Source: Caulobacteraceae bacterium
GTDB taxonomy: Bacteria; Pseudomonadota; Alphaproteobacteria; Caulobacterales; Caulobacteraceae
DNA length: 55,963 nt
Reading direction: 5' to 3'
NCBI GenBank assembly: GCA_019747095.1
Contig: JAIERG010000172.1
Coordinates: 1-55,963 of the forward strand
The notes below the pieces were generated by a model that was not told the origin of the DNA, made no database searches, and saw only the letters and a program-made list of their open reading frames with translations. Positions within the stretch are counted from its first letter, which is position 1, and every line of letters starts with the position of its first letter. This document shows, one piece after another, positions 36,810 to 55,963 of this stretch. Both the position numbers and the translations under genes were made by a program.

Positions 36810-36813
36810 ACCG

Positions 36814-37848: not shown

Positions 37849-37938
<90 letters not shown>

Positions 37939-38124
37939 CCGTTCTGACCTGAAGCCGACGGGTCCCTGACACCAGCGAAATACCCTCGACATTACCGTGA
38001 CATGCCCGGAACCGGAGACGCATTCGCGGTCTCTGCGGTCGCTCTTCCGTCCCTGATCCAGCCAATATGCCGACTTCGTCTCTGCTGAGCGCGAGACGGG
38101 TCCCTTTCCCGTGACCGGCCGCGA

Positions 38125-38303
38125 TCCCTGATAACAGGGAAGTACTGGGAAAACTTCCACCGGCGAACGATTTCGGCATGACGCCGCGCTCCGCAAACCC
38201 CCGCCCCTGCTGGGTTCAGCGGTCCTGGCGCGTTGGATTTCCCGTAAACTGAACAGGGAATATTCCCCGAGCTTGCAGGGAATATTCTTGGGCGATCAGG
38301 GAA
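38125..38303. repeat. CAGGGAA repeat array between tRNA-Ser and the recombinase
   Basis: Palindrome TCCCTG-ATAA-CAGGGA at 38125-38140; direct copies at 38254, 38276 and 38297. Confidence 0.75.
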
Positions 38304-38328
38304 CGGGTCGCCTGGAGCAGGCGACCCT

Positions 38329-39966
38329 CTAGGCGGCGTAGAGACGCCGCTGCTCAGTCCAGTCGAGCGGCAACTCGGCCCGGGTGACTGCTTCCAGCGT
38401 CAGACCCACCGGCTGTCGGCCATCGAGGATGGCGGCCTTCAGATCGGGGGCGAGGAAGGCGGGCTTGATCATGCGTCGGACAAAAGCGCCGGACACGCCC
38501 TCGGCCTCGGCAATCTGGTTGATGCTGTCGATCTCGCCGGCGAACAGTCGACGCTTCCACGCCTCGGCGCGGATCAATGCTGAGGCCATGACCCGATCGA
38601 TCCGGGTCGAAGCGATAGCCGTTGAGCCCTCTGGCCCGACGGCGACCATCGTTCCACCCCGACGAACGAGACGGACCTTGATCTCCGTCATGGGCAAGTT
38701 GCCGCGTCGCTCCAGGCGATCGATACCAACGCGGCTCTCCGGGATCAGATCGCGCGCGGCGATCTTGAGACGCTCCTCGTCGAACCTGATGATCACGGCG
38801 TCCGCAGCCACCTCGATGCGGTCGATCACGTCACGAACGGTCGTCCAGTCGGGCGTGACTGATGCGCTGTCGATGATCCGCATCTCGCCCAGACGCCGCA
38901 CAACGATGTCTTCAAGCAGCGGTGCCGAGATGCGCGAGACTGCGCCGGCCTTGTCGGGTCGCCCAGTCGTGAGCGCGGTAGAGACATAGTAGTGGTAGCT
39001 GGGCTTGTTCGGCTTGGTCGCCTTGACCGGAGACATCGGGTTGCCGGCGGAATCAAAAAGCAGTCCCATCAGCGGCGCGCCCTTGTGCGGGCGGCGGGCT
39101 TCACCGGGCAGGCGCTGTTTGCGATCGTTCTCGTCGAGGCGAGCCTGCACGGCATCAAAGGTCACGCGGTCGATGATGGCCGGATGCTGGCCGGGATAGC
39201 TCTTGGTCTTATGGGGTATCTCTCCGACGTAGGTGCGGTTACGCAGCAAATGGAACAGCGCGCCGCGGTCCATCGGCTGGCCGCCGGTCTGAACTCCGGC
39301 CTTGGTCGTCCGACGTTTTGACACGACCCCAGCCATTGTCAGTTCCTGGTGGACCTGATGAACCGAGCCGGTCTCCAGATAGCGGCAGAAAATCCCCCGT
39401 ACGGTCTCAGCCTCCGTCGGATTGATGACCAGGGTTCGCCCTGACGCCTCGTATCCGAGGGGCACTCCACCCCCCATCCACATGCCGAGCTTCTTGGAGG
39501 CAGCGATCTTGTCTCGGATCCGCTCACCGGTCACCTCGCGCTCGAACTGGGCGAAGGACAGAAGGACGTTGAGGGTCAGCCGGCCCATGGAGGTCGTGGT
39601 GTTGAAGGCCTGGGTAACGCTGACAAAGCTGGCGCCTGCCTTGTCCAGGACATCCACGATCCTGGAGAAGTCGGTCAGGGCGCGGGTCAGGCGGTCGACC
39701 TTGTAGACCACCACCACATCGATCCGGCCTGATGCTACATCCGCCATCAGCCGCTTTAGCGCCGGCCGATCCATGTTGCCGCCGCTGAACCCGCCGTCAT
39801 CATAGATTTCGGGAAGCAGAGTCCACCCCTCGCCGGCCTGGGAGAGGACATAGGCGGCGCAGGCGTCGCGCTGCGCGTGGAGCGAGTTGTAGTCCTGCTC
39901 CAGGCCCTCTTCGGTGCTCTTGCGGGTATAGATGGCGCAGCGAATGGGACGACCGGCGGGCTTCAT
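38329..39966 (-). CDS. Large serine recombinase
   Basis: AIYTRKS (catalytic Ser), DGGFSG..MDRPAL, KVDRLTR, FAQFERE, G.W.GG..PLGY and HPAII. Confidence 0.95.
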   Translation of the reverse strand: MKPAGRPIRCAIYTRKSTEEGLEQDYNSLHAQRDACAAYVLSQAGEGWTLLPEIYDDGGFSGGNMDRPALKRLMADVASGRIDVVVVYKVDRLTRALTDFSRIVDVLDKAGASFVSVTQAFNTTTSMGRLTLNVLLSFAQFEREVTGERIRDKIAASKKLGMWMGGGVPLGYEASGRTLVINPTEAETVRGIFCRYLETGSVHQVHQELTMAGVVSKRRTTKAGVQTGGQPMDRGALFHLLRNRTYVGEIPHKTKSYPGQHPAIIDRVTFDAVQARLDENDRKQRLPGEARRPHKGAPLMGLLFDSAGNPMSPVKATKPNKPSYHYYVSTALTTGRPDKAGAVSRISAPLLEDIVVRRLGEMRIIDSASVTPDWTTVRDVIDRIEVAADAVIIRFDEERLKIAARDLIPESRVGIDRLERRGNLPMTEIKVRLVRRGGTMVAVGPEGSTAIASTRIDRVMASALIRAEAWKRRLFAGEIDSINQIAEAEGVSGAFVRRMIKPAFLAPDLKAAILDGRQPVGLTLEAVTRAELPLDWTEQRRLYAA

Positions 39967-40394
39967 GCGGCTTCCGTTTCCCTGAGGCCGAAGAATCGCG
40001 GTCCGTTCCATCGGACACCGGTGATCAGCCTGGCTACCTTGGAGAGGCTGGCGTGCTTTGCGCCGTTCCAGATGAAGCCGTCTTGAACCACCTGGACCTC
40101 GTGGCGTTGGCCCTGCCACTCCCGGATGAGCGTGGAGCCTGGCTTGAACGCAGCGGTGCGCACCTTGGACTTATGGCCCATGCGATGCCTGGAGACCGCG
40201 CTGGTCAGGCGGCGGTCGGGACTGACGGCACCTTGGCCTGAAGCATTCATCTGCAGCGCCTCGGCCAGCGCACGGCGCAAGAGGTCAGGGGAGCGGACCG
40301 GGGGCGGCTCACCAAGCCGCTCCCTCCACACCGCCCGAAGCGCATCGACGTCCATGGCTGTGAGGCTGACCAGAGTTTCGCGCAGGTCACTGAT
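39963..40394 (-). CDS. DUF2924 family protein (expected start codon reads ATC)
   Basis: LRAVW, PGSTLIREWQG..HEV and SLSKVA..ITGVRWNGPRFFGL; ATGA overlap with the recombinase. Confidence 0.8.
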   Translation of the reverse strand: MSDLRETLVSLTAMDVDALRAVWRERLGEPPPVRSPDLLRRALAEALQMNASGQGAVSPDRRLTSAVSRHRMGHKSKVRTAAFKPGSTLIREWQGQRHEVQVVQDGFIWNGAKHASLSKVARLITGVRWNGPRFFGLRETEAA

Positions 40395-40663
40395 GACGGC
40401 GACGCCTCTGCGGGCTCGGCAACCTGAGCGATGCGCCAGACCCGCCGATCGTCTGTCTTCTCGCTCGTGACAGCGTGTCCCTTCTTCTTCAGCGCACCGG
40501 CCATGGCTCCGCGAACGGAGTGGGCCTGCCAGCCGGTGGCCTCGATCATCGCCGGCATGTCGGCTCCCTCCTCGCGCGCTAGGATCGTGATCAGCCGATC
40601 CAGCTTGGAGGATGGGCGCGGCCTGGGCGCGGCGGGCAATTCTGTCTTTGATGTTCGGGGCAT
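40247..40663 (-). CDS. DUF3489 family wHTH protein (reads through its expected stop at about 40391)
   Basis: SK...I..L.R.EGA, ATGWQAHSVRG..AGALKKKG and RVWRI. Confidence 0.8.
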   Translation of the reverse strand: MPRTSKTELPAAPRPRPSSKLDRLITILAREEGADMPAMIEATGWQAHSVRGAMAGALKKKGHAVTSEKTDDRRVWRIAQVAEPAEASPSSVTCAKLWSASQPWTSMRFGRCGGSGLVSRPRSAPLTSCAVRWPRRCR

Positions 40664-40988
40664 TGTGCATGTTCCTCGGATCAACGAGCGCGGGGTTGCG
40701 CTCTACTGAGCCGAGCCCGGACTGCCGGGCGGGAACGGGATCACTACCGCTTGCTGTGCGGCGCAAGTCCAGTCGGACAAGCGGCCTCTCGCGGAAAACT
40801 GCAGCGCCGCCCTTGCGGCCCTGTTGTGAAAAATCCACCTCCGTTCGTCGGACTTAATCCGGCGCTGTCGGCAGAACATCGGGCTTCGTCCCACCGGGCA
40901 TTCGACAGGTTCCCCTCATCATCACCGGCGTCAGCCGCACGCGCTTGCGCGATTGCGATCCTGTGCCCGCTTGTCTGGAGACCTGATC

Positions 40989-42437
40989 ATGACGATCGAC
41001 CCTGCCCAAACCATTGCCCGGCAAATCCCTCCATCCGTCACCCTGGCGGTGGAGCTCGTTGCCATCGTCGCCCTCGTACTTGGCCGCCAACTTCGAATTC
41101 ACACGAAGAGCATGATCGAAGCGATGGCCGCCTGCATTCGGCAGTTCGGCTTTCTGATCCCGGTCCTTATCGACGCAGAGAACCGGGTCATCTGCGGCAA
41201 GGGCCGGGTGGAGGCTGCTCGCCTGCTCGGCATGACCGAAGTCCCCTGTATTCGCATCACCCATCTGTCGGAGGCCGAGCGACGGGTGTTCGCCATCGCG
41301 GAGAACCAGCTCGGCCAACTCGCCGGCTGGGACAACGAGACCCTGAAGCTTGAACTGCAGGAGCTGTCGGGCATGGACCTGAGCTTCAGCCTGGAGCTGA
41401 CCGGCTTTTCCTCGGCCAAGATCGACAGCATCATTTTCGGCGGCGACAGCGGCGACCGCAGCGAAAACGCCATCCCTGCCCTGCCCGATCAGATCACCAG
41501 CCGGATGGGCGACCTGTGGCAGTTGGGCAACGGCCGCCTTCTCTGTGGAGACGCCACCGAGCCTGCCAGCTTCGCCAGGCTGCTCGGCGGTGAGAAGGTC
41601 CGCTGCGTCTTCACGGATCCGCCCTACAACGTTGCCATCGCGGGCCACGTCACGAGCGGCGGCAAGCATGGCGAGTTCGTCATGGCGTCCGGCGAGATGT
41701 CCGATGACGAGTTCACCGGATTCTCGACCAAGGGGATGGCAAGAGCGGCTGAAAACCTCATCGACGGCGGCCTGCTCTACTGGTGCATTGACCACCGGCA
41801 TGTGGAGCACACGCTCGCCGCGGCATCGGCCGCCGAGCTGGAAAGACTCAACCTTATCGTCTGGGACAAGAAGGCCGGCGGCATGGGCAGCTTCTACCGC
41901 TCCCGTCACGAGCTAATCTTCCTGTTCAGAAAGCCCGGCGCTTCGCACGTGAACCGGGTGGAACTGGGCAAGCACGGGCGCGACCGATCCAACGTCTGGA
42001 CCTATGAGGGGGTCAACGGGTTCGGACCCGCCAAGGCCAAGGCGCGGGAAATGCACCCAACCGTCAAGCCACTCGCCCTCGTGCGCGACGCCATCCTCGA
42101 CTGCACGGCCAAGGGTGATGCGGTCCTCGATCTGTTCAGCGGCAGCGGCACGACGCTCATCGCCGCAGAGCAGATCGGGCGCCGCGGCTTCGCCACCGAG
42201 CTTGACCCCTGTTACGTCGATGTGGGCGTCATCCGCTGGCAGGAGTTCACCGGCCGGGAGGCGCGTCTAGCCTCGACCGGTCAGACGTTCAGGGAGGTCC
42301 GCGCCGAACGCGCCAGCGTCTCAGAGGCTAGTGTCTCAGAGCCTGTGTCACCGCAGGAGGAGGCCGCGTCGCCGCCCGCCGGCATCAACGCGGTGGCCGC
42401 CCCGCGTGTCCGGGTTCGCACCCGTCTGGCCGCCTGA
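40989..42437 (+). CDS. ParB-N domain + beta-class DNA methyltransferase
   Basis: I.QFGF..PVLID...I.G.GR; TDPPYN (motif IV), HPTVKP, DLFSGSGTT (motif I). Confidence 0.92.
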   Translation: MTIDPAQTIARQIPPSVTLAVELVAIVALVLGRQLRIHTKSMIEAMAACIRQFGFLIPVLIDAENRVICGKGRVEAARLLGMTEVPCIRITHLSEAERRVFAIAENQLGQLAGWDNETLKLELQELSGMDLSFSLELTGFSSAKIDSIIFGGDSGDRSENAIPALPDQITSRMGDLWQLGNGRLLCGDATEPASFARLLGGEKVRCVFTDPPYNVAIAGHVTSGGKHGEFVMASGEMSDDEFTGFSTKGMARAAENLIDGGLLYWCIDHRHVEHTLAAASAAELERLNLIVWDKKAGGMGSFYRSRHELIFLFRKPGASHVNRVELGKHGRDRSNVWTYEGVNGFGPAKAKAREMHPTVKPLALVRDAILDCTAKGDAVLDLFSGSGTTLIAAEQIGRRGFATELDPCYVDVGVIRWQEFTGREARLASTGQTFREVRAERASVSEASVSEPVSPQEEAASPPAGINAVAAPRVRVRTRLAA

Positions 42438-42449
42438 GGGAGATGATCG

Positions 42450-42836
42450 ATGTCTGACGATTACGCGGTCGGCTACGGCCGACCACCCCAGGCCACCCGG
42501 TTCAAGGCCGGCCAGTCCGGCAACCCCAAGGGCCGCCCCAAGGGATCGCACAATCTGTACACCCTGCTCCACGACGCCATGCAGACCCGCGTCCCCGTCA
42601 CGATTGAGGGACGTCGGGTCTATCTGACCAAGGCGGAGGTGGCCGTCCGCCAACAGGTCGATAACGCCGCCAAGGGCGACCTGCGGGCTCTCGCTTTTCT
42701 GGTCAAGGCGATGGCCCAGGCCGTGCCGCCGCCTACGGGCTCTTCGGCGGACCAGAGGACCGAGCTCACCACGGAGCAGTGCAATGCGATCTTCGAGGCC
42801 CTTGTCCGGGAACACGCTACGGAGGGCGGGCTATGA
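42450..42836 (+). CDS. DUF5681 protein (small terminase-like)
   Basis: VGYGRPP..TRFKAGQSGNPKGRPKG; KGD.RA; ATGA overlap with TerL. Confidence 0.85.
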   Translation: MSDDYAVGYGRPPQATRFKAGQSGNPKGRPKGSHNLYTLLHDAMQTRVPVTIEGRRVYLTKAEVAVRQQVDNAAKGDLRALAFLVKAMAQAVPPPTGSSADQRTELTTEQCNAIFEALVREHATEGGL

Positions 42837-44326
42837 AAGCCCTCCCAATGCCCGTCGAGGACCTCCTGTTCGTACGCGCACGCGACGACTTCGGCACCTT
42901 TCTCGAACTGACTTTCGCATCCCTCAACCCCAAGGTCGAGCTGGCGAGGGGCTGGTACCTGTCAGCCATGATCCAGGCGTTGATCGAGATCGCAGACGGC
43001 TCCAACCGTCGTCTGCAGATCACCGTGCCGCCCCGTCATCTGAAGTCGATCATGACGACGGTGGCCTTCTCGGCCTGGATGATGGGCCGCGACCCGACCT
43101 GCAAGATCATCTGCGCCAGCTACGGCCAGGAGCTGGCCTCCTCCCTGTCGCGCGACTTCCGCAAGGTGATCTCCTCGGACTGGTACAAGAGGGTCTTCCC
43201 TGTCACGGCCGCCTCCATCGACAGGGAAACCGAGAACGAGGTCAGGACCAAACAGGGTGGCTTCCGGTTCGCCACGGCGGTCGGATCGGCGGTCACAGGC
43301 TACGGTGCCGATCTGATCATCATTGACGACCTCCTGAAGGCCGCCGATGCCTCCTATCCTGAAGCCAGGGCGAGGGCTCAGCGGTTCGTGGACGAATCCC
43401 TCTTCACCCGCCTGAACGACAAGGCCAGCGGAGCCGTCATCGCCATCCAGCAACGCCTGCATGAAGACGACGTCTCCGCCCACCTGACCGCGAAGGGCGG
43501 CTACCGCCATCTGAACCTGCCGGCCATAGCCGTTCGGGACGAGATCATCGCCCTCACGCGCGGCCGCACACACCTTCGCCGGATCGGCGATGTCTTGAAC
43601 CCCGACCGGGAGCCGATGTCGGTTCTGGACGAGATCCGGGTCGGCCTCGGGTCACGGGCATTTGAGGCCCAATACCAGCAGAACCCCACACCAGCCGACG
43701 GAGACATCCTTCGTTGGGATCGCATCCAGTTCCACGATGACGACCCCCTCGACTATCGGACCCGCGATGGCCGGCGACTGCTCCACAAGGTGGTCATGAG
43801 CTGGGACACGGCCGACACGGTCTCGCCGTCCGCCGACTATTCGGTCGGGACCGTGTGGGGCCATGACGGCACGGCCTGGAAGCTGCTCGACCTCATACGG
43901 GTCCGCCTGGCCTATTCCGATCTCTTGGCCCGTATCCGCGCAGAGCGCCGCAAATGGCTCGCCGATCTCATCATCGTCGAGGAGGCCGGGGTCGGGCGCG
44001 CCATCCTCGATACCCTTTCACGGGATTGTAGACGTCTGAGCGAACCGGAGCACCACGCGCCCTACTGCGCTCGTCTGGCCGCGTCGCCGAGGCTGGGCAA
44101 GGCGGAGCGGTTCGCCGCCGCTTCAGACCCCCTCTACTCGGGTAAGGCCCTCCTCCCACGCGACGCGCCTTGGCTTGAAGACCTGCGTCGCGAGATGATG
44201 GCATTCCCGAACGGTCGCCATGATGACCAGGTCGACAGTATCAGCCAGTTCCTGAACTGGACGGTCGGTCGTGGCGGACGACAGCTGTTAGATCCTCGCA
44301 GGGCCGATCGGACCAGAACACGATGA
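42833..44326 (+). CDS. Phage terminase large subunit
   Basis: PPRHLKS (Walker A), IIIDD (Walker B), QRLHEDD, AQYQQNP, SWDT, DYS and FPNGRHDDQVDS. Confidence 0.92.
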   Translation: MKALPMPVEDLLFVRARDDFGTFLELTFASLNPKVELARGWYLSAMIQALIEIADGSNRRLQITVPPRHLKSIMTTVAFSAWMMGRDPTCKIICASYGQELASSLSRDFRKVISSDWYKRVFPVTAASIDRETENEVRTKQGGFRFATAVGSAVTGYGADLIIIDDLLKAADASYPEARARAQRFVDESLFTRLNDKASGAVIAIQQRLHEDDVSAHLTAKGGYRHLNLPAIAVRDEIIALTRGRTHLRRIGDVLNPDREPMSVLDEIRVGLGSRAFEAQYQQNPTPADGDILRWDRIQFHDDDPLDYRTRDGRRLLHKVVMSWDTADTVSPSADYSVGTVWGHDGTAWKLLDLIRVRLAYSDLLARIRAERRKWLADLIIVEEAGVGRAILDTLSRDCRRLSEPEHHAPYCARLAASPRLGKAERFAAASDPLYSGKALLPRDAPWLEDLRREMMAFPNGRHDDQVDSISQFLNWTVGRGGRQLLDPRRADRTRTR

Positions 44327-44366: not shown

Positions 44367-45077
44367 CTACGAGCAGATCTGATTCCAGCTTTGGGCAAAC
44401 TCCTGTGGGGCCATCATCTCCTCCAGCACCGGCCCGAACGTCTCTCCCGAGGCGATGAACCGCTGAAAACCCGTGCGGCCTCCAAACCCATTGGTGGCGT
44501 TGATCTCGCCGCACACCATGGGGGTAGAGCCCTGGAAGATGACGAAGCGGTTGTTGCGAAACCGGACCGCCCCCGGGTCGCGCATCTGGTCGCGGACCGC
44601 GATCTCGGTCCTAGCGATCCAGAGCGCCTGCTGGGTCGGGTCATGAAGCTTCTCAGCCGACGCGATGGTGGCGTCGCCCGTGGCGGCGATCTCTCGGTCC
44701 CGGGCGCGGGCCAGCCGCTCGGCCTCTGACGCCTCTTCCTCCGCCAACCGGATCTGCTCCTCGGCCGCAGCCTCGCGCCGCTCTTCCTCAAGCTCAGCGC
44801 GCGCGGCAAGGACCATGTCGTCGTTTAGGGGGCAGTCGCGCAACTGAGCAGTCTGGCGGCACACCTGGACCCGGTCGGCCCATTCCGCAGCCGCTATGTG
44901 CTCGGGACGTGTCACCGGCACGCTGTTCAATCCCGTGAATGCCACGAACCCTGCCGCCGCGATCCCGCCGCCCTGCCAGCGCCTTTTCATGAACCAGAAG
45001 GGCTTTACCACCCCTGCCAGCCCGAACAGGCTGCCCATGATGGCCAAGCCTGAAACTGCACCCACGACGCCGTCCAT
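44367..45077 (-). CDS. Membrane-anchored hypothetical protein
   Basis: Two N-terminal TMs, coiled coil, and C-terminal RDP..VRF...VCGEINATNGFGG..GFQRF. Confidence 0.75.
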   Translation of the reverse strand: MDGVVGAVSGLAIMGSLFGLAGVVKPFWFMKRRWQGGGIAAAGFVAFTGLNSVPVTRPEHIAAAEWADRVQVCRQTAQLRDCPLNDDMVLAARAELEEERREAAAEEQIRLAEEEASEAERLARARDREIAATGDATIASAEKLHDPTQQALWIARTEIAVRDQMRDPGAVRFRNNRFVIFQGSTPMVCGEINATNGFGGRTGFQRFIASGETFGPVLEEMMAPQEFAQSWNQICS

Positions 45078-45256: not shown

Positions 45257-45469
45257 ATGGATGTGCGCAAGAGACTGGGACTGCGCCTGCAGCGCCTGCG
45301 CCAGGAGCGCGGTCTCTCGCAGGAGGAGTTGGCCGACCGATCAGGCCTTCATCGGACCTATGTCTCTGGCGTGGAACGTGGGGTGCGCAACCCCACCATC
45401 ACGGTCCTCGACAAGCTCGCCAAGGGGCTAGAGGTGACCCTTCCAGACCTGGTCACTCTCGGCGACTGA
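45257..45469 (+). CDS. XRE-family HTH regulator (C-protein-like)
   Basis: LR..RGLSQEELA..SGLHRTYVSGVERG.RNPT...L.KLA..L. Confidence 0.93.
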   Translation: MDVRKRLGLRLQRLRQERGLSQEELADRSGLHRTYVSGVERGVRNPTITVLDKLAKGLEVTLPDLVTLGD

Positions 45470-45689
45470 TCGGCTGGCTACGGCGCTCTAGGACCTCCAT
45501 AGCGGCCGCCAGGGTAGCGAAGTCTGCAGCCTGTGAGAGGAGGATGCGGCCGCTTACGTCGAACCGGAGAAGATCGACGTCGGTGCAAAGGACCTGAGAG
45601 GAGTCGAGGAGTGCTGAGGCCAGCACCCCGAGGCGTAGCTTCGCCTCCAGGGCATCTTCACGATCAAGTTGAGGCTCGTCATCGGTCAT
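45453..45689 (-). CDS. Small hypothetical protein
   Basis: 78-aa helical ORF convergent on the XRE gene; family not recognised. Confidence 0.45.
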   Translation of the reverse strand: MTDDEPQLDREDALEAKLRLGVLASALLDSSQVLCTDVDLLRFDVSGRILLSQAADFATLAAAMEVLERRSQPISRRE

Positions 45690-45842: not shown

Positions 45843-47600
45843 TCAGCGGGCTGCGGCTCTCAAGCGCTCGTCGAGCCGGCGGTATTCATTCGCCTCGGCT
45901 ATTTCCGGTGCCGCGGCTCTCAAACGGTCGAGGATGTTCCTGAGCTCATTGGCCATCCAGATCTGATCAATATCTATGCACCTGTGGAGGAGCGTCAGGG
46001 TTTCCCTGGGATGTCGCTCAGGGTGGGCAGAGGCTGCGAGTTCGTGGAGAACCATATCGGCGCTGCCTCGGACAAGATGGGGCAAAAGCGCCTGCAGGGC
46101 CTGAGGAAACGTCTCATCCAAGGCCACGATCGCCCGCGCGAATTGGGACGCAACGCCTCTGCCGTGCGGATCAGGCTCGGGTGGCCAGACCCGGGCGAGC
46201 AAAGGGCCGACCCGTTGAACCCAGGCGTCGTCGGCGGAGAGTTCGTCCACCGCCCCGTCCGCAAGGTCGCGCAAATAGCTGGCGATCCAGGCCGCCGCCT
46301 CGGACTTTAGGCGCTCCGGCATGGCGCGGATCGCGTCTCTGGCGGCGTCTCGCGGCAGTTCGTCGACGCCGAACTCCACGCCGACCAGCATTAGCATCGC
46401 CGCGAGTTGGGTTCCCGCCGTGCCCAATCCTTCGAGGCGCTCGGGCGTGAAAGAGGGCAGGAAGTAGGGTTTGAGCGCTTGCCAAAGGCGTTCGTCGATA
46501 CGGGGCTGCCATCCGAACCCCTGCCAAGCGGCGGTAGCCTCCACTTCATCGCGCCAGTCAAACAGCGAAAGCAGATGGGCGCGAGTCCAGTCCGGGTCGA
46601 CCGCATAGAGATAGGACAGGCGCGAGGCGGCGATCACCCGCGCTGGCCGATGTCCCGGCTCCGCGGGGGTCAGCAGTCGCGTCAGGCGCGCCAATGCATC
46701 GTCCGGTATCTCCTGCCCTACCTTCAAGCCCCGACCGAACAGGGCATCGAAGAAGGCCGACGCCAAGGAACCCATGGAGCGGTTGATCGCCAGACCGACC
46801 CATCCGCCTCGTTCCGGTGCCTCGGCATTGTCCGGATCCCTAGCCGCCGCGGCGAGAACGCGATCGAAGACGGCCCAGAAGGGGTCGCCCGCGCCCGGAG
46901 AGGGCCGCGCCTTGGCCGCCACCTCCAGAACATCGGCCGCGGCCCGCGCCACATCGGCTTGGTTCAGAAGCCCATCCGGCAAGCCGAGCAGGAGCGGAAG
47001 CAGGCGATTGCGAGTGTCCGGCGAGCGCGCTTGGTCGCGCAAGCCCCAAAGGCCGTGAACCCAGATGTCGGCTTGGTCGGGCTCCGTCGGCGTGAGCTGG
47101 AGAACGTCGACGGCTTTGGCCGGGTCTTGGGCGGCAAACTCCCGCCAGTTCTCAAGCGCGCCTTCGCGCTCGTCGCTCGCCTCCCTCAGCTCGACCGCCA
47201 GCTCTTCGGGCTCCATCCGGGCGAGATCGTTAACCTTGAGGCGCGTATCGGGGCCGACGCGGAACTCCATCCAGGTCGAGAAGTCGGCGCGTTCCCCTTC
47301 GGCAACTTCCCACTCGGGGTAGAGACCACGCAGACGCCCCGCCTCGGCCTCAAGCGCGGCGGTGAGCGGAGGTTCGCCGAGGCGCTGCAAGATCGAAAGA
47401 CGGTCAAAGATACGGCGATCGCGCGACAGGGTTCGCCGATCCAAGTCCAGCCGAGCCAACAGCGCCTCGGGCGGTCCCGCGACCAAAAGCGTCGATACGG
47501 CCTCTCTCGTCGCTTCGTCGCCGTGGCTCCACAGGCGACGAAGCAGGTCCATCACCTCCTTGCGAGCGCCTGAACTCCACAGGAGCGGGATGTCAGTCAT
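45843..47600 (-). CDS. C-terminal half of a Dsr1-like defence protein (helical-repeat/DUF4020-like)
   Basis: LWS....EVM.LL, AIN..MG, L..VDPDWTR..LL..FDW and AAWQGF.W.PR; own ATG with upstream GGAG, overlapping the SIR2 ORF by 8 nt. Confidence 0.7.
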   Translation of the reverse strand: MTDIPLLWSSGARKEVMDLLRRLWSHGDEATREAVSTLLVAGPPEALLARLDLDRRTLSRDRRIFDRLSILQRLGEPPLTAALEAEAGRLRGLYPEWEVAEGERADFSTWMEFRVGPDTRLKVNDLARMEPEELAVELREASDEREGALENWREFAAQDPAKAVDVLQLTPTEPDQADIWVHGLWGLRDQARSPDTRNRLLPLLLGLPDGLLNQADVARAAADVLEVAAKARPSPGAGDPFWAVFDRVLAAAARDPDNAEAPERGGWVGLAINRSMGSLASAFFDALFGRGLKVGQEIPDDALARLTRLLTPAEPGHRPARVIAASRLSYLYAVDPDWTRAHLLSLFDWRDEVEATAAWQGFGWQPRIDERLWQALKPYFLPSFTPERLEGLGTAGTQLAAMLMLVGVEFGVDELPRDAARDAIRAMPERLKSEAAAWIASYLRDLADGAVDELSADDAWVQRVGPLLARVWPPEPDPHGRGVASQFARAIVALDETFPQALQALLPHLVRGSADMVLHELAASAHPERHPRETLTLLHRCIDIDQIWMANELRNILDRLRAAAPEIAEANEYRRLDERLRAAAR

Positions 47601-49650
47601 GGGCCAACAGCTCCAGACGCTCGGCGTCAGAGAAGTGATCGCTGTGCGCCATCGCCGCCACGCACAAGCGTCGGAACGCGAGGTAGGGAACGGTTCGCCA
47701 GCGCGCCACGTAGTGTCTCCCGAGGTGCGGCTCGTGCTCGTCGAGATATACCCACCCGCGCCAGAGTAGATCGAACAGCGATGTCCATTGTTCGTGGTTC
47801 CGGTTTTGATCGTGAGGGACGACGGACGGGCGCTGATAGGTGCTGGGGTCCACGGCTATCGTCGCCTGATCGGCGGCTGCATAGACATCCAGAACAGCTG
47901 TCAGGGCATACGTGAGGTCTGGCAAAAGAGCCGCCCAGAACCGCTCCGGTTCGGGTCGGCGGTCCACGATCTCGACCAGCCTCGCCAGATGGTCTTGGTC
48001 GGCCAGCTTCACTTCGACTTCCGCGACACCGCGGAACCGCTCGCCGAAAGTCTCCGGATCGTCCTCATCTGTCTGAACGCGACGGGTCAGGGAGACGTCT
48101 AGGTCCAGCACCGGCCGCAGGGCCGACTGAATCTCGAGCCTGAGCCAGGCCGGCTCCGCTGCGGTCGCGATCGCGGCGGCGGCGACCCGGCCCGGATGTT
48201 CCATCGCATGGGCGAAGGTCCAGTACCCCTCGGACGAGACGATGCGCCAGAACCGCTGGAGGCCGTCCGGGAGCGTCGGACCGTCCGCGAGGCGGCGTCG
48301 GACGGCCTCACGAAGCTGATGATGCAGCCGGCGGTTTGCACGGAGTTTGGCGATGATTCGGTCGACAAGCCCCTCGCTGCACAGGTGCCTGACGAGCCAA
48401 GGGATCAGGTTGCGGCTTACGGATGGCAAGACGCTGTTGCGATGATCCTCGACGACTGGGAACAAGGGATCGATATGCAGAGCCGGCGCCGCAGGTGCCG
48501 GCCGCTCCGCCTCATGCGCGATCTCAAGTTGTCTCCGGTGGGTCTCAACGATGTCGCGATCACGAGCCTCGAACGCGTCGAACCATTCGATCGGGGCCGG
48601 GACATCCGGCGTCGCCCGTCCCGGATCCGGCTCGCCGACACGGGCGAAGGTCCGCGCGCCGTGCCCGTCGTCTCCGGCGCGTCCAGCGACCGCCCAGAGG
48701 AGGTTGTCCGTGTCGGTCGGCGCGATCCGGTCCGGCCGGAAGGGCGCAATGCGGCGGATCAGGGCCAGCGTATTGGCTAGATAGTCCGCCCGGGCCTCGG
48801 CCCAAGCGACGAGCGTGTCCTTGAGCAGCCGGTGATGGCGGGCCTGGTTGTAGAAGATCGGCTCTAGCTTGCGGTCGGTGAAAGGCTGCCGCGGAGGCAG
48901 CGTTCGGCCCCTATAGGGCGTGAAGATGTAGGCTGGCCCGCGTGCGCGGACGACGCGGGCCTCCGCGTCTTCGGCCGCGAAGGCGTCGGTCATGTAGCGC
49001 AGGACAGGATCGTTCAGACTGTATCCGATGAAGAGGACCGTGAAGTCGGCAAACAACCGGGCCACGAAGCGTGCCGCCCAGGCCTCAGTCAGATAGGCGC
49101 GACCGAAGTCGGCGCTGGTGAGCACGAGATCTGTGTTCGGCGCGGCGCCTAGGCGACCGTGCAGATAGACTAGGCTGCGCCAGCTGGCCGTGCGGTCGTT
49201 GCGCGGAATGGGGAGGATGGGCCCTGCGTGATAGTCGTGCCCCGGCAGCAGGCCCGCCTCCGCCTGTTCGAACAGATGGTCAAAATTGGTGGTGATCAAC
49301 CGCATCCCTTCGGAGCGGCGCAGGCGAGCGAGGGCGAGGATCGCCCGGTGCATGTCGAGGTCGCGGGCCGGCTGAGAGAGCCGTTCGACGACCGTTTCCC
49401 TCACCCGTGCCGCGCTCACCCGGCTTTCGAGGAATCCGAGCAGACGGTCAGGCCAATCCCAGTCCTTGTGGCGCGGGCCGGGCGGGACCTGGCCCAGTTC
49501 GGCGAAGCAGTGTTCGACCAGTCCCCGGTAGTCCGGCAACCCGGCGCCCATGGAGATGCCCGCGCCGCAGAAGATCACGACACGATCGTCTTCCAGATCT
49601 TGGACGAGGCTGTCCGGGACGACGGGGCCATGGCGGACGAACTGAGGCAC
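47593..49650 (-). CDS. SIR2-domain NADase, N-terminal half of a Dsr1-like anti-phage protein
   Basis: QF...GP.VPD.L...VVIFCGAGIS..AGLP, ITTNFD, YLHG, LVLTSADFGRAYLTE.WAARF and FIGYSLNDP; C-terminal PS...H.QN. Confidence 0.85.
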   Translation of the reverse strand: MPQFVRHGPVVPDSLVQDLEDDRVVIFCGAGISMGAGLPDYRGLVEHCFAELGQVPPGPRHKDWDWPDRLLGFLESRVSAARVRETVVERLSQPARDLDMHRAILALARLRRSEGMRLITTNFDHLFEQAEAGLLPGHDYHAGPILPIPRNDRTASWRSLVYLHGRLGAAPNTDLVLTSADFGRAYLTEAWAARFVARLFADFTVLFIGYSLNDPVLRYMTDAFAAEDAEARVVRARGPAYIFTPYRGRTLPPRQPFTDRKLEPIFYNQARHHRLLKDTLVAWAEARADYLANTLALIRRIAPFRPDRIAPTDTDNLLWAVAGRAGDDGHGARTFARVGEPDPGRATPDVPAPIEWFDAFEARDRDIVETHRRQLEIAHEAERPAPAAPALHIDPLFPVVEDHRNSVLPSVSRNLIPWLVRHLCSEGLVDRIIAKLRANRRLHHQLREAVRRRLADGPTLPDGLQRFWRIVSSEGYWTFAHAMEHPGRVAAAAIATAAEPAWLRLEIQSALRPVLDLDVSLTRRVQTDEDDPETFGERFRGVAEVEVKLADQDHLARLVEIVDRRPEPERFWAALLPDLTYALTAVLDVYAAADQATIAVDPSTYQRPSVVPHDQNRNHEQWTSLFDLLWRGWVYLDEHEPHLGRHYVARWRTVPYLAFRRLCVAAMAHSDHFSDAERLELLAHD

Positions 49651-50097: not shown

Positions 50098-50718
50098 TCA
50101 TCCATCGACACGCTCGACGATCCGGGCCGTCGCGCCGTTCATCTGGAAGAACAGCCCTTTTTCCCCGTTATCGGCAAGGGTCAGCACCCCGGTGACCTCG
50201 ACCCGGTGATAGCCCGCAGGGATCGGCCGGCGCAGGGTCACCTCAATCACCTCATTGGGCTCGGCAGGCGGGTGGAAGAAGCAGACGGGGGTGTAGGGAG
50301 AGATCAGGAAGTGACGTGTGCGCAGGCTCGATTCCAGTGGGAGCATATAGCCCTGAAGCGTGATCCGACCCCCGGCCATGTCTCTCACGCTTTGCGGGTG
50401 GGCCGCCTGGAACAGCTGGGACCGTTCATCGATCGTGATCCGGGTCTGGCGCAGGACCCGCCACATCGGGCCGTCGGCCGTGGGCAGATTGAGCTGCATG
50501 GCTCGCTCTTCGGCGAGCTCGGCGGCCAGAGGATCGGCGGCCGACGCGTTCTCAAGGGCTTCGGCAGCCTGGGACAGGGGGACTTCGATGAAACCGAGCC
50601 CGGGCTCCAGCGCCATCTCCCCGGGTGTGACGGCGGCGGGCGCGTCGGTCGCGGATTCCATCGGCCGACACCCGGCGGCCAGGAGCAGCAGCAGGGCGAG
50701 CGCAACACGATTGGGCAT
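50098..50718 (-). CDS. DUF3299 lipoprotein (ZrgD-like)
   Basis: Lipobox AAGC; GYMLPLE, FLISPY..VCFFHPP..PNEVIEV. Confidence 0.82.
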   Translation of the reverse strand: MPNRVALALLLLLAAGCRPMESATDAPAAVTPGEMALEPGLGFIEVPLSQAAEALENASAADPLAAELAEERAMQLNLPTADGPMWRVLRQTRITIDERSQLFQAAHPQSVRDMAGGRITLQGYMLPLESSLRTRHFLISPYTPVCFFHPPAEPNEVIEVTLRRPIPAGYHRVEVTGVLTLADNGEKGLFFQMNGATARIVERVDG

Positions 50719-51953
50719 CAGCCGCCTACCAGGGTGCGTACGACCGACGTCCGGGCGGCGATCCACCCCGGCAAGATCGAACCGATCAAGCCCAGCGCCA
50801 CTGCGACGATCACCAGCAGCAACTCCGCCAAGCCGGGTACCGGCAAGGGCAACGCATGCCCGCCCGGCCCGGTGGCCGCGACGGTCTCGGCGACGGCCCT
50901 GGCCCCAAAGGCCCCGATCACCCCGCCAGCGAGCCCCAGCAGTCCACCCTCCATCAGGCTCAGCGACATCATGCGAGCGGGAGAGGCCCCCAAGGCGAGC
51001 AGCAGGGCGATCTCGCGCCGCCGCGCGTACACTGCAGCGATCAGGGCGATCAGGAAGCCGACGCCGGACAGGACCAGCAGGGCGACGCCCAGCCCCGCGA
51101 TGGCTTGCGAGCCCGCGCCGACCAGGGCCGCCAGACGGCGTGCTTCCTCGGGCGGAGCGGCCGGTTGCAGGTCCGGCGTCCCCGCGATGCGACGCGGCAG
51201 CACGACTGCCGCCAGCGGCGACCGATAGCGGACCAGCACGGCCGTGATCTCGCCGACCGCGTCGACGCCCTCCTCGCCCGTCGCCGCGGCGTGATCGTGG
51301 GCGTGATCGTGGTCGTCCGCACCGCCCACCGCCTCGTCATCGTGACCGTGCAACGCCCAGACGCTGCTCAGATCGGTCAGGACCAGGCGGTCGATGACCG
51401 CGCCCGTTGGCCCGAGGATCCCGACCACCCGGTAAGGCTGGTCCGCGTGCGCCTCCCCGCCTGACAGACCATGCTCGCCCGCAAACGAATCGCCGATCGA
51501 GAGCGACAGACGACGCGCTGCCTCGTGCCCGAGGACGGCCTGCATGGGATCGTCCCATACCGACCCCTCGACGACCTCCGCGCCATAAAGACCGAGATAC
51601 TCTGTGGTCGTACCGACGATCCGGGCTCCGGCCACGCTGTCGCCCAGCGACACGGGCACGGCCGCCTCGACGAGAGGATCGCCAGCGAGCGACGCCTGAA
51701 CGGACAGCGGGATGTTGCCCGTCGGCGCATCCACCTGGAACAGCGTCGAGGTCACGATTTGCAGCGGACTGCCTTTGGCTCCCACGACCAGATCGACCCC
51801 TGCGAGATCGCGCGTCAGCCGATCTTCGGCCGCGCGCTGAAGTAGCAGCACTGACCCCAGGACGGCGACGGCGACCGCCAAGCCGAGGGCATGGAAGGCC
51901 CAGGTGAAGGGGGCCCTTCGGATCAGAGCCGCGACCAGACCGAGCGCCGTCAT
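50718..51953 (-). CDS. ABC transporter permease (MacB/FtsX type, ZrgC-like) with His-rich loop
   Basis: DLVVGAKGSPLQ, P.GNIP, P.SLGDS, HGHDD...DHDHAHDH and RRREIALL.ALGA. Confidence 0.9.
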   Translation of the reverse strand: MTALGLVAALIRRAPFTWAFHALGLAVAVAVLGSVLLLQRAAEDRLTRDLAGVDLVVGAKGSPLQIVTSTLFQVDAPTGNIPLSVQASLAGDPLVEAAVPVSLGDSVAGARIVGTTTEYLGLYGAEVVEGSVWDDPMQAVLGHEAARRLSLSIGDSFAGEHGLSGGEAHADQPYRVVGILGPTGAVIDRLVLTDLSSVWALHGHDDEAVGGADDHDHAHDHAAATGEEGVDAVGEITAVLVRYRSPLAAVVLPRRIAGTPDLQPAAPPEEARRLAALVGAGSQAIAGLGVALLVLSGVGFLIALIAAVYARRREIALLLALGASPARMMSLSLMEGGLLGLAGGVIGAFGARAVAETVAATGPGGHALPLPVPGLAELLLVIVAVALGLIGSILPGWIAARTSVVRTLVGG

Positions 51954-52672
51954 CGCGGCCTCTCCATCTCGATGATGGCACCCATCCGGTCACGCAGGCG
52001 CTGGTCGTGGGTCGCGACGATCAACGCCGCCCCGGTTTCACTGGCTATCGCAAGCAGCAGGTCGGCGATCCTCTCGGCATTGACGTCGTCCAGGCTGGCG
52101 GTGGGCTCGTCGGCCAGGATCACGGCCGGCGAAAGCAACAGCGCCCGCGCGATGCCGACCCTCTGGGCCTCGCCCCTGCTGAGCGTCTCGAACCGCCGTT
52201 TGGCCAGAGACGCCATCCCGACCCGGTCGAGCAGATGCATCGCCCGCTCGCGATCCTGAGGAAGGCCCACGGCGAAGGCGCCCAGCAGGACATTGGCCAG
52301 AGCAGACAGTCCTGCCACCCCGTGAATGTCCTGAAAGACCAATCCGATCTGGCGACCGCGCAGACGATCACGCTGCGTCCGGTTCAACGCGCCCAGCCGC
52401 ACACTGTCTACAACCACGTCGCCCGAAATGGGCGAGAGGAGCCCGGCCAAGGTCATCAATAGCGTCGTCTTTCCACATCCGGACGGGCCGAGCAGCAGTC
52501 GCGCCTCCCCCGTCCCAAGCGCGAGATCGCGGACCGCTGTCAGCACGACCTCGTCCCGACCGATCCGCAAGTCCACGGTCTGGATCGCGGGAGTAGCGAG
52601 CGCTCCGGTTTTGCCAACCCGATCTTCGGAGATGTCGATTTCGCGCTGGATTCTTCTCTCCCGCCCTTGCAT
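51950..52672 (-). CDS. ABC transporter ATP-binding protein
   Basis: GPSGCGKT, LSRGE.QR, ILADEPT and ATHD. Start uncertain. Confidence 0.92.
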   Translation of the reverse strand: MQGRERRIQREIDISEDRVGKTGALATPAIQTVDLRIGRDEVVLTAVRDLALGTGEARLLLGPSGCGKTTLLMTLAGLLSPISGDVVVDSVRLGALNRTQRDRLRGRQIGLVFQDIHGVAGLSALANVLLGAFAVGLPQDRERAMHLLDRVGMASLAKRRFETLSRGEAQRVGIARALLLSPAVILADEPTASLDDVNAERIADLLLAIASETGAALIVATHDQRLRDRMGAIIEMERPR

Positions 52673-52676
52673 TGGG

Positions 52677-52691
52677 TGTTACATTATAACA
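52677..52691. promoter_or_regulatory. Zur box
   Basis: TGTTACATTATAACA, close to the consensus TGTTATAnTATAACA; lies between divergent zinc operons. Confidence 0.85.
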
Positions 52692-52721
52692 TATCAACCC
52701 CCGGCGTGAAGTGGATGACCG

Positions 52722-53105
52722 ATGGCGGGTGTTTTGCGAGCTCCAAGTTTTGACGGCATGGCGATGTCACTCTCGGGCCTGTGCATTCTTCACTGCTTGG
52801 CGCCTCCGGTCTTCGCCATCGCACTGCCGTTTCTGGGCGTGCTGGCGGAGACGGAGTGGGTCCACTGGCTGTTCGTGGCGCTTGCCATCCCCGCCTCGGC
52901 GCTCGCGCTTTTCGGCTCGTTCGGAGGCGGCTCCGCCAGCCTCATTCTCAGCGCGACCGCAGGCCTCGGCCTGCTAATCGCCGGCGCGGCCGGCTGGCCG
53001 GACCACGGCAGCGAGACGCTGATGACCGTCTCAGGCGGGCTGGTGCTCGCCGCTGTCCACGCCTTGAACTGGCGAAGGGCGCGACGGCCTCATGGGCGGT
53101 CCTAG
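52722..53105 (+). CDS. MerC-domain membrane protein
   Basis: D...M.LSGLC.LHCL..P, EWVH, and E...TV.GG..L...H.LN. Confidence 0.85.
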   Translation: MAGVLRAPSFDGMAMSLSGLCILHCLAPPVFAIALPFLGVLAETEWVHWLFVALAIPASALALFGSFGGGSASLILSATAGLGLLIAGAAGWPDHGSETLMTVSGGLVLAAVHALNWRRARRPHGRS

Positions 53106-53568
53106 AGCCGCGTCCACCCTGCCGCCCAGGGCGCTGTCCCTCGCGGAGCGGACCTGCGCCGAAGCGGGCGGCAAGCTGACGGCACCGCGCCGCGAGGTCC
53201 TGTCCTTGCTCCTCGAGGCTGACCAGCCTCTCGCCGCCTACGACCTGATCGAGCGCATGCAGGCGTTGCGCGGCCAGACCTATCCGCCGACTGTCTATCG
53301 CGCGCTCGAGTTTCTGGAACGGGCCGGGCTTGTCCATCGCATCAGCAGCCGCAAGGCCTACGTCGCCTGCAGAGGCACCGAGCCCCACCACCGCCCAATC
53401 TTCCTGGTCTGCCGCGAATGCAACGCAGCCACGGAGGTCACCGCGCGCGAAACGGAGACGCTGCTTCAAACCCTGGCGCAGAACGCGGGCTTTGAAAGCG
53501 AGCAGATCGTGCAGGAGGTTCAGGGCCGATGCCGCGCCTGTGTCGAAGCCGCCTGTGAGACGGCCTAA
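53092..53568 (+). CDS. zur: Fur-family regulator, Zur-like
   Basis: LT..RR.VL, AYDL, PPTVYRALEFL...GLVHRI.S..AYVAC, and two CxxC motifs. Confidence 0.82.
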   Translation: MGGPRAASTLPPRALSLAERTCAEAGGKLTAPRREVLSLLLEADQPLAAYDLIERMQALRGQTYPPTVYRALEFLERAGLVHRISSRKAYVACRGTEPHHRPIFLVCRECNAATEVTARETETLLQTLAQNAGFESEQIVQEVQGRCRACVEAACETA

Positions 53569-53613
53569 AGACTGGAACGTCCCGTCAGGCATTCAGCCTT
53601 CAGGGCAACGCTC

Positions 53614-54297
53614 TCAGTCGCGTTCGGCGGCCAATGCGATCCGGGCCTGACCGCCCACGGCACTCCCGACCACCTGGCCCAGCGGTTCGATAGCACCGTC
53701 CGAAGTCACCCGAACCACACCGATCTCGCCCTCCGCCAGCCGCAGGCCAGTGGCGCGGAAGATGTTGCCCGCATGGCTGACCAGCGCTGTGTTGGCCTGA
53801 CGGCCCGCCAATCCGCGCAGGATTGTCGCGAATTCCTCGCCTGCCGCGATCACGTCGCGACCGCCTTCGACCTCGAGGTTTGGGTGGATGAGGCGCGGAT
53901 CGACGGTGTAGTCCCCGAACATGAACCGGGCTGTTTCGGTCGTCCGACACATGGGGCTACTGATGACGTCCGACGTCTCGATCCCCAGCGCCCGCAGCGC
54001 GAACCCGGTCTCCTGCGCCCCGGCGATGCCGGCCACGGACAGATTGCGTTGCGCTGCGCAGTCGGTCGCCGGCTGGGTATAGTCGTCGTCCCGTGACGGA
54101 ACTTCCGTCCTTTCATGGCGGACCACCAGGACAACGCCGCCCGACCTCATCTGTTCGATGAGTTGGGCGGTCGCGTTCGCGCCTGGCGTGGCAGCACTCT
54201 GGTTCGCGGCGTGGGCGACAGGCGGCACTGTCTGGGCCCAGGAGGGGTCGCAAGAGAAAGCGAACGCGGTCAGGGCGGCGAGAGCCACGAGCTTCAA
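53614..54297 (-). CDS. Secreted histidine phosphatase family protein
   Basis: Signal peptide; VVRH, QRNLS..G, SSP.CR..ETA and LVSH. Confidence 0.8.
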   Translation of the reverse strand: MKLVALAALTAFAFSCDPSWAQTVPPVAHAANQSAATPGANATAQLIEQMRSGGVVLVVRHERTEVPSRDDDYTQPATDCAAQRNLSVAGIAGAQETGFALRALGIETSDVISSPMCRTTETARFMFGDYTVDPRLIHPNLEVEGGRDVIAAGEEFATILRGLAGRQANTALVSHAGNIFRATGLRLAEGEIGVVRVTSDGAIEPLGQVVGSAVGGQARIALAAERD

Positions 54298-54311
54298 GGA
54301 AGAGTCTCCTT

Positions 54312-55163: not shown

Positions 55164-55889
55164 GCGGCCTCCGCACGCGGTCCCCAGTGCGGGAAAGGAT
55201 CAGCGAGCTTGCGCCAACGCTCCGGGCCCCGCTCCATCTCGATGCGGGTCAGCAACGCCTGATCTAGCTTGGAGGTCAGAAGGTCGCGGTTCATGCCTGC
55301 TCCAATCAGCACAATCTCCTGCCGCCGGTCTCCATAGGGGTGACGCCAGACAGCCTCGAGCAAGCCAAGCCATTCCGGATTGTCGTCGGGCCAGCGTTCC
55401 TTGGGAACCGACGCCCACCAGAGGCCGCCCCATTCATGCTCCGTCACCGCCCCGGCCTGGCTCCAAGACCCGACATAGGCCATTCGACTGGCTAGCCAGA
55501 AGAAGCCCTTTGATCGCCAGACGCCAGGCCACTCCTTTTGGAAAAGATCATACAGGCGCTGCGGGTGAAAAGGCCGCCGCGCCTTGTAGACGAAGCTTGA
55601 TACCCCGTACTCCTCGGTCTCGGGCGTGACTTCGCCGCGAAGCGCCCGACTCCATCCGGCTGCGCTCTCGGCCTTGTCCATGTCAAACAGACCGGTGCCC
55701 ATCACCGACGCCAGCGGGACACGCCCTCGCTCGGCCCGCATGATCCGGGCTGATGGATTGAACTGGCGCATCATGGCCTCCAGCAGGCCGAGATCGCGCT
55801 CTGGCAAAAGGTCGCTCTTGTTCAACACAATGACATCAGCGAACTCGATCTGATCGACCAGCAGATTGGCGACCGTCCTCTCATCATCG
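55160..55889 (-). pseudogene. 3' part of a COG0523 (ZigA/YciC/CobW) zinc GTPase, interrupted by an IS
   Basis: DDERTVANLLVDQIEFADVIVLNKSDL, PETEEYG, RPFHP.R, RSKGFFWLA and GDRRQE; similarity stops at the IS end. Confidence 0.8.
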
Positions 55890-55963
55890 TGACGTGACCC
55901 CCGTTTCTCATCCAGCCATAACGAGAGTCCTAGGTTGATCTGAGCTGTGATCGGCTGGGTTGG
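55890..55963 (-). mobile_element. End of an IS3-family element (partial)
   Basis: Begins TGACGTGACCCCCGTTTCTCATCCAGCC, a TG-type terminus resembling IS407-group ends, exactly where COG0523 similarity is lost. Confidence 0.6.

Follow-up and report, generated by a model that had tools for sequence, protein, structure and literature searches.

What kind of mobile element anchors itself at a transfer RNA (tRNA) gene with a serine recombinase and its own terminase, without recognizable genes for a virion or for replication? This question is raised by a locus in a 55,963-nt stretch of Caulobacteraceae DNA (contig JAIERG010000172.1, assembly GCA_019747095.1; the whole stretch is referred to as the window), in which an original prediction, made from the letters alone, had described six tRNA-anchored genes as a distinct class of satellite or packaging parasite that supplies its own terminase or repurposes TerL, a reading to be given up if related loci usually proved to be decayed prophages. 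Comparison with relatives, made at the level of sequence, showed site-specific insertion, an intact terminase kept under selection, and no recognizable virion or replication genes. The explanation that we favor, with confidence a little above even, is a replication-less packaging parasite with a serine integrase and its own terminase, which would pump its own DNA into the heads of a helper phage. The gene family is real and widespread, and it seems not to have been described before: the literature searched contained no account of such an element, a point on which subscription papers and preprint supplements may also bear, and its domains of unknown function (DUFs) are mentioned in passing in the accessible parts of PMC8954984 and PMC10299305 (here and below, papers are cited for the parts of their text that were accessible). 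The target and the core of the element are as follows.

37849..37938, + strand: tRNA-Ser(CGA), the intact integration target (ARAGORN, Rfam).
37933..37938, + strand: crossover core CCGCCA, the final six tRNA bases and left junction of the element (identity with a copy in genome G077; junctions of L084 compared with L083).
37939..38328, no strand: left arm, non-coding, 92.6% identical over 435 nt to the relative L169.
38254..38303, + strand: three phased CAGGGAA repeats spaced by 22 and 21 bp, a candidate protein-binding array.
38329..39966, - strand: 545-aa large serine recombinase that carries an additional domain at its C-terminus (Pfam Resolvase and Recombinase; PHROG).
39963..40394, - strand: DUF2924; start codon altered in the window copy, next ATG at 40355.
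40391..40663, - strand: DUF3489, predicted winged-helix; stop lost in the window copy, the frame continuing to 40247.
40989..42437, + strand: fusion of ParB-N with an N6/N4 (N6_N4) methyltransferase; DPPY, FxGxG, and GxxR motifs retained.
42450..42836, + strand: DUF5681, likely the small terminase subunit (TerS), from the position of its homolog in phage LE3.
42833..44326, + strand: large terminase subunit (TerL), 497 aa (Terminase_6C; phrog_38 at E 2e-90; TIGR01630 above cut-off).

Every part of the predicted six-gene set was found in its place, and TerL retains its ATPase motifs (Walker A, Walker B, motif III) and its nuclease acids, as had been read; its start is most likely the ATG at 42833, not the GTG at 42779 originally called. 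The proposal of coupled operons held for the ATGA overlaps that join DUF2924 to the recombinase and DUF5681 to TerL, and failed in this copy for DUF3489 and DUF2924, whose overlap is lost here at position 40392. Among the genes called from 38329 to the contig end, no family match to a portal, capsid, tail, primase, or relaxase was obtained, in agreement with the prediction.

Species-representative genomes were scanned with TerL, yielding 206 relatives, the best 80 of which, together with the window, formed a set of 81 loci whose gene content was determined with our own codon-based gene caller within 10 kb of TerL. The counts were 77 loci for DUF5681, 75 for the methyltransferase, 37 for the recombinase, 34 for DUF3489, and 31 for DUF2924, and the two operons occurred in several relative orders. 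An even sample of 401 genomes from across the class yielded 49 genomes with TerL matches at E ≤ 1e-30. Among the matches, 41 other places scored E < 1e-64, and the 40 of them that were examined comprised 27 module-type loci without a portal match, seven prophages in which a portal follows TerL and module genes are absent, three phage-type loci without a portal match, and three unclear loci. Together, 118 module loci were available, with at least 3 kb of downstream sequence in 99 and at least 7 kb in 77. Within 7 kb after TerL, these contained 156 same-strand proteins of at least 200 aa, of which 149 were scanned, the other seven being near-duplicates of scanned proteins or an insertion sequence (IS) gene; shorter and opposite-strand open reading frames (ORFs) lay outside the scan. 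None of the 149 matched a head or packaging family, while control portal and major head proteins were named in four of four cases; one partial "tail protein" match lay beyond the recombinase operon in L012. This survey had been named in advance as a test able to refute a distinct class, and portal-free loci predominated in it.

The viral collection (IMG/VR) provided 149 further loci, 100 with both the methyltransferase and DUF5681, of which 90 had TerL and 89 the recombinase; a portal occurred in one viral-collection locus, where the gene order was different. The same module is present in GenBank MT839917.1. Five loci (L302, L304, L313, L317, and L320) retain the methyltransferase and DUF5681 without TerL, matching the TerS-only pattern of phage-inducible chromosomal islands (PICIs), which we count in favor of a packaging parasite; in four of the five, DUF5681 is about double length or duplicated. 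Some relatives are broken by IS elements or frameshifts. Downstream of the module, L086 and L087 carry genes for a RecE-like exonuclease and an Erf-like annealing protein.

In 106 TerL rows that we labelled as module-type, the Walker A Lys, Walker B Asp-Asp, motif III Gln-Arg, and first nuclease Asp were all 100% conserved and the other nuclease acids were kept at 97-98%, and two of 160 rows contained internal stops. The ratio of nonsynonymous to synonymous rates (dN/dS) ranged from 0.02 to 0.33 with a median of 0.07 (pairwise NG86 over 19 informative, non-independent pairs; one further pair was identical), and was 0.12 between the window and L001. Judged from these substitutions, TerL is intact and under strong purifying selection; relaxed selection, one half of the other outcome by which the original prediction could have failed, was not seen. 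In a quick IQ-TREE analysis of 111 chosen rows with no outgroup, 75 of 77 module TerLs formed one clade (SH-aLRT 98) beside the TerLs of portal-bearing prophages; all trees were quick or FastTree reconstructions without bootstrap or a one-clade test. The TerL tree roughly tracks host families. In L167 and L168 the module is kept, including DUF5681 and the methyltransferase, but TerL groups with that of phage contig L138, which suggests a second capture from another phage lineage. Taken with the portal-free homologous loci and the evidence of mobility described below, the reading of an intact, distinct class was borne out.

Insertion was resolved by comparing relatives. The copy in genome G077, whose recombinase is 96% and left arm 92.6% identical to those of the window, lies at another tRNA-Ser (74% like the window's), whereas the G077 tRNA linked to NrtR is 100% identical to that of the window but has other DNA behind it. 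Identity between the two copies runs to ~45760, where the cargo differs, defining a swappable cargo slot. L084 is a complete 7.3-kb unit that extends from a tRNA-Ser to a conserved far arm with both ends in an identical six bases, and in L083 and L019, which are 94-99% identical to L084, the far arm, the six bases, and the left arm are joined directly; from this junction comparison the crossover is assigned to the six bases at the tRNA 3' terminus. L088 (7.4 kb) and L258 (8.8 kb, with a transposase within the methyltransferase) are likewise bounded at both ends. The shared core is 6 nt in all three bounded elements, which contain the core genes and small ORFs, plus only the transposase in L258; no recognizable replication or virion family was found in their non-core ORFs. 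Of 50 loci, 25 had the 3' end of a tRNA gene directed at the recombinase from within 1.3 kb (17 Ser, 4 Met, 3 Ala, and 1 Val), tandem junctions occurred in L019/L083, L034, L098, and L167, and no downstream repeat of at least 12 nt, as a partial-tRNA direct repeat would be, was present in module loci. The far arm was not found in the window with two profiles, the second of which was built from non-IS sites only. A 33-nt motif considered as the far attachment (att) site was rejected, as it consisted mostly of IS6 ends. No end-to-start junction of the element was found among the matches listed when the contigs of four runs, a form of data that drops rare forms, were compared with positions 36000-55963.

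Several other observations concern these ends. No ancestral neighbor gene of an empty site could be fixed across 20 genomes of the genus (L182-L201), nearly all of which differ in the DNA behind this tRNA-Ser; its 3' end is an insertion hotspot where other serine and tyrosine recombinases are also present. In L003 (4470-5120), the tRNA is separated from the element by three tandem ~213-bp units that each terminate in the six-base core and are possibly a non-autonomous mini-element. An IS6 subfamily end resembles the far arm over ~30 bp (L167:12326, L067:14729, L080:20661, and G000:C186:13482), and in three loci the element starts exactly at such an end; IS ends may serve the recombinase as surrogate sites.

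The recombinase has catalytic motifs conserved at 94-100% and is 51% identical to Gp3 of phage AcaML1, with a C-terminus that matches Gp1/Gp2; the extra C-terminal domain is a separate small gene in AcaML1-type prophages. A model of the complex of the recombinase with DUF2924 scored 0.74, against 0.01 for the best control, with contact agreement of at least 46% and a partner predicted local distance difference test (pLDDT) value of at least 67; the mark applied to such scores was reached by 51 of 78 solved complexes and two of 108 mismatched pairs, and the modelled DUF2924 was the window frame beginning at the altered start position. DUF2924 is thus predicted to bind recombinase residues 464-537, within the extra C-terminal domain. 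This site lies elsewhere than that of known directionality factors, which are predicted at the junction of DNA-binding domain 2 (DBD2) and the coiled coil of large serine integrases (PMC11795197). The C-terminal half of the window DUF2924 is weakly RAMA-like, its own match falling below the family cut-off, and 15 of 73 DUF2924 proteins matched RAMA at E ≤ 0.01 (best 6.5e-05). The RAMA domain reads methylated DNA. DUF2924 occurred in 90 of the 401 class genomes, and 40 loci chosen for inspection away from TerL matches included many AcaML1-like prophages with a split recombinase, many fused-recombinase islands at tRNAs, and the five TerL-less loci (L302 and others) listed above; nine DUF2924 copies were present in one complete 5-Mb genome (G155:C1). 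DUF3489 is listed as winged-helix (PMC4520260) and gave scattered helix-turn-helix (HTH) matches. The suggestion that these DUFs are directionality or accessory factors was upheld in part, DUF2924 being a predicted recombinase partner in the model. Neither DUF2924 nor DUF3489 is unique to the element, as both are also present in complete prophages of the AcaML1/WO type.

On the packaging side, a ParB-methyltransferase beside terminase genes is the ordinary "ParB-Tls" locus of phages in the account of PMC6536676. In phage LE3 a DUF5681 homolog overlaps terL and is followed by the portal, and because of this arrangement DUF5681 is likely to be TerS, by analogy. Folding gave a pLDDT of 55 from the single sequence and 77.6 from an alignment; the model had no match in the PDB at E ≤ 0.001 and matched only DUF5681 proteins in BFVD, and profiles of DUF2924, DUF3489, and DUF5681 gave nothing below E 0.05 against the PDB. 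Weak DUF5681-like matches (E about 0.002-0.005) were also seen in lytic phages (OP902295.1, MF158040.1, and related Shigella and Citrobacter phages; NC_041880.1), and in phiPMW a DUF5681-like gene three genes ahead of terL may be an unannotated TerS.

Phased CAGGGA repeats stood near the att ends in 35 of 111 module loci versus none of 60 phage loci, with 56 of 79 gaps at 21-22 bp, and the whole source genome had a single phased-repeat cluster, that at 38254-38303. A phased pair was present in 44 of 189 TerL-module loci, 0 of 20 AcaML1-like prophages, two of 28 recombinase-only loci, and four of 3000 random windows; because the motif was chosen visually among module loci and close relatives weigh too heavily, these counts are descriptive. 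The repeats are a candidate pac-like or att-accessory site. Rfam detected no RNA family over the left arm and repeats besides the tRNA, and a scan for promoters and terminators gave signal at chance level.

From these parts a mechanism can be proposed for the packaging parasite. As the comparison of loci shows, the family is inserted at the terminal six bases of tRNA genes for Ser, Ala, Met, and Val, with the tRNA left whole and copies stacked in tandem. DUF2924 is predicted by the model to bind the recombinase C-terminal domain as an accessory subunit, and either it or the winged-helix DUF3489 is a candidate excision switch. DUF5681, as the TerS suggested by LE3, would recognize a site for packaging within the element, and the phased repeats close to att are a possible candidate for it. 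The ParB-methyltransferase may mark or license this site as proposed for the ParB-Tls locus, and TerL would cut the DNA and dock on the portal of the helper. Since the element has no replication gene, packaging would begin on excised circles or in situ on tandem copies, presumably taking the downstream defense cargo along; lateral cotransduction by Staphylococcus aureus pathogenicity islands (SaPIs) and in situ packaging by PICIs provide a precedent (PMC12829572). A bolder version, possible but clearly less probable than the parasite as such, is a packaging-only class of satellites that carries a whole terminase, swaps TerL to fit helper portals, and is packaged from tandem chromosomal copies, with DUF2924 as a methylation-reading recombinase subunit tying excision to packaging.

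A number of points weigh against a packaging parasite. The window copy is slightly damaged at the DUF3489/DUF2924 junction, because a single-base difference at 40392 abolishes the stop of DUF3489 together with the start of DUF2924; the overlap is whole in relative L169 and in run X5, and run X1, which may be the sample of origin, matches the window. The recombinase operon lies within 10 kb of TerL in just 37 of 81 loci, partly owing to contig ends. Sister prophage TerLs have a C-terminal tail of 27-29 aa with a shared end motif in seven of nine, and the module TerLs end in longer tails of varying sequence and length (median 42 aa), with the motif in three of 112, a divergence that could reflect lost portal docking; tails vary as much among other true phages, and they are conserved inside module subclades. 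The DUF5681 model aligned with the NV1 small terminase at Z 3.5 (root-mean-square deviation 7.6, 55 aligned), tied with unrelated rows. Terminal repeats that would mark excised circles were absent from all 19 and all 149 viral contigs tested, and tandem arrays can account for the attP-type junctions observed. Nor does presence in IMG/VR show encapsidation, as the contigs look like trimmed integrated regions. There is no replication gene to account for sufficient copies. Two HK97-type portals and two further Terminase_6C genes in the source genome could belong to helpers.

Four other explanations were weighed. One, which we regard as unlikely, is that the terminase has been repurposed for defense or self-maintenance, the methyltransferase marking self and TerS-TerL cutting unmarked DNA or jamming the packaging of an invader, with the island moving by general transduction, vesicles, or transformation. 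The methyltransferase is indeed kept in 75 of 81 loci, the XRE-family protein downstream has its top PADLOC match in a restriction-modification control protein, the TerL tails differ from those in the sister prophages, defense cargo is near, and there is no replication gene; but linkage of methyltransferase and terminase could be inherited from a phage ParB-Tls locus (PMC6536676; AcaML1), no PADLOC model matches TerL, DUF5681, DUF2924, or DUF3489, the variants that lack TerL retain TerS, and the XRE matches are generic. Less probable still is a lateral-transduction device, in which in situ headful packaging would move cargo and host DNA among kin and rebuild the element only sometimes. The absence of replication genes, the many ParB-methyltransferase-TerS-TerL operons without a recombinase within 10 kb, the swapping of cargo directly after the core, a TerL tree that runs roughly by host family, and the precedent of in situ packaging by PICIs (PMC12829572) fit it, but near-identical copies at different tRNAs and complete att-bounded units show movement as a unit.

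Gene transfer agents (GTAs), which the original prediction had admitted as a helper, are disfavored, and a specific parasite of RcGTA-type agents appears very unlikely. The host genome does have a GTA marker and a GTA-type head cluster, and a unit of 7-9 kb is near the small capacity of GTA heads, but the marker GTA_TIM was present in just 27 of 80 genomes searched, and in six of the 37 that came from the class-wide sample; GTA clusters without this domain may exist. Least probable, to a degree that leaves it little room, is the remnant of a decayed prophage. Every part has homologs in phages, the window has its junction lesion and a split Dsr1 gene, and some relatives carry IS elements or frameshifts, whereas the module TerLs form one deep portal-free clade under strong purifying selection, complete att-bounded units exist, the same gene set recurs in 90 further viral-collection loci, and the combination of genes mixes two phage families.

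Beyond TerL, the window continues with accessory and cargo genes.

44367..45077, - strand: membrane-anchored hypothetical, accessory; recurs after TerL in relatives; no named family.
45257..45469, + strand: XRE-family HTH regulator, found in 32 of 81 loci.
45453..45689, - strand: 78-aa conserved hypothetical; identity with G077 stops just beyond (~45760).
45843..49650, - strand: anti-phage sirtuin Dsr1, cargo, in two overlapping frames, 47593-49650 and 45843-47600 (NCBIfam NF041818, PADLOC).
50098..55963, no strand: metal/zinc cluster (DUF3299, ABC, MerC, Fur, CobW), behind an IS6-type end at 49896-49908.

The predicted cargo was confirmed as to Dsr1 defense, which follows the core, and not as to the zinc genes, which cannot be assigned to the element because its far end is beyond the contig, which stops in a repeat. 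The last 55 bases (within 55890-55963) recur at the ends of 12 other contigs, and this terminal repeat seems to be a multicopy, IS-like sequence that breaks the assembly. The two Dsr1 frames correspond to NF041818 positions 2-696 and 701-1262 and represent a frameshift, an assembly error, or a natural split. In the 3.0-Mb draft source genome, the flank of NrtR and tRNA-Ser is the same as in locus L005, which suggests a Brevundimonas-like alphaproteobacterium. Elsewhere in this genome, a compact cluster (G000:C224:11978-20631) of terminase-like, capsid-like, protease-like, portal, and integrase-like ORFs with no obvious tail looks like a capsid-forming satellite, the portal alone being confirmed by family search; a GTA-type head cluster with TerL and portal (G000:C225:1431-6593) seems short, and another TerL lies at a contig end (C189:17751-19345).

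Known satellites, in the accounts consulted, borrow the TerL of a helper (PICIs, VEIMEs) or pair TerL with their own capsid and portal (capsid-forming PICIs, cfPICIs); a family with TerS and TerL and without portal, capsid, or replicase falls between these, and most core components of those models would be missing from it. Such a family would account for some of the turnover of defense cargo at tRNA 3' ends in Alphaproteobacteria, and it raises the questions of whether a terminase can dock on a non-cognate portal and what the ParB-Tls methyltransferase does. Roles are proposed for three DUFs, and the family points to serine integrases whose target is a six-base end common to tRNAs of several isoacceptors. 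If the packaging-only class is true, it would be a built-in lateral-transduction machine for defense islands at tRNA 3' ends, in ~1/15 of the alphaproteobacterial genomes sampled.

The closest functional parallels are with PICIs and SaPIs, which are also small chromosomal islands with an integrase, no virion genes, defense cargo, and tandem copies, as described in PMC10085698; they have a regulator and a small terminase, for which the XRE-family protein and DUF5681 are the candidate counterparts. The element differs from that description in having no primase-replicase, a serine and not the usual tyrosine integrase, and its own TerL and ParB-methyltransferase. Its integrase is a large serine recombinase with intact motifs. 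No primase-replicase was recognized in the window or the three att-bounded relatives, where an unfamiliar type among the small ORFs is possible, and, of the PICI-type regulators (AlpA/MerR/Stl), no match to AlpA was found, the XRE-family HTH protein occurring in 32 of 81 loci. The cfPICIs are the sole satellite family with terL in the core in the material of PMC10085698, and the element likewise has its own TerL, but they have a capsid, portal, and head-tail adaptors, whereas none was found in the 149 scanned proteins or the bounded elements. Tycheposons and VEIMEs resemble the element in tRNA targeting, serine recombinases in some, TerS in some, the lack of known replication genes in some, tandem junctions, and swappable cargo (10.1101/2020.12.28.424599; PMC9618062); in those sources they carry a TerS or capsid gene and not TerL, VEIMEs being presumed to take that of a helper, and tycheposons duplicate part of the tRNA with att sites typically of ~40 nt, compared with the 6-nt core here.

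Among phages, AcaML1 and WO (JX507079.1, AB036666.1) share the recombinase (51% and 32%) and DUF2924 (39% and 31%), and AcaML1 also shares DUF3489 (47%) and ParB-methyltransferases (38% and 32%). Unlike the element, both encode a primase, a GpA terminase of lambda type, and a portal, capsid, baseplate, and tail; such genes were found in separate prophage loci and not in the window. The recombinase of AcaML1-type prophages is split, and phased repeats occurred in 0 of 20. The phage ParB-Tls locus has the same ParB-fused methyltransferase directly upstream of terminase genes, but portal and head genes come after it in the phages described (PMC6536676), whereas in the element it stands alone. The TerL-portal-protease-capsid cluster of RcGTA is not at the element, the GTA-type head cluster of this genome being on contig C225. 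Staphylococcal cassette chromosomes (SCC) use a large serine recombinase (Ccr), insert at a 3' end while keeping the gene, stack in tandem, and carry variable cargo, all features shared with the element; the element recombinase scores 112 bits against the CcrB cut-off of 900, and we know of no SCC elements with a terminase. As the definitions stand in the sources cited for these families, the element is outside those of PICIs (no primase), cfPICIs (no capsid or portal), and tycheposons (no partial-tRNA repeat), yet it is satellite-like.

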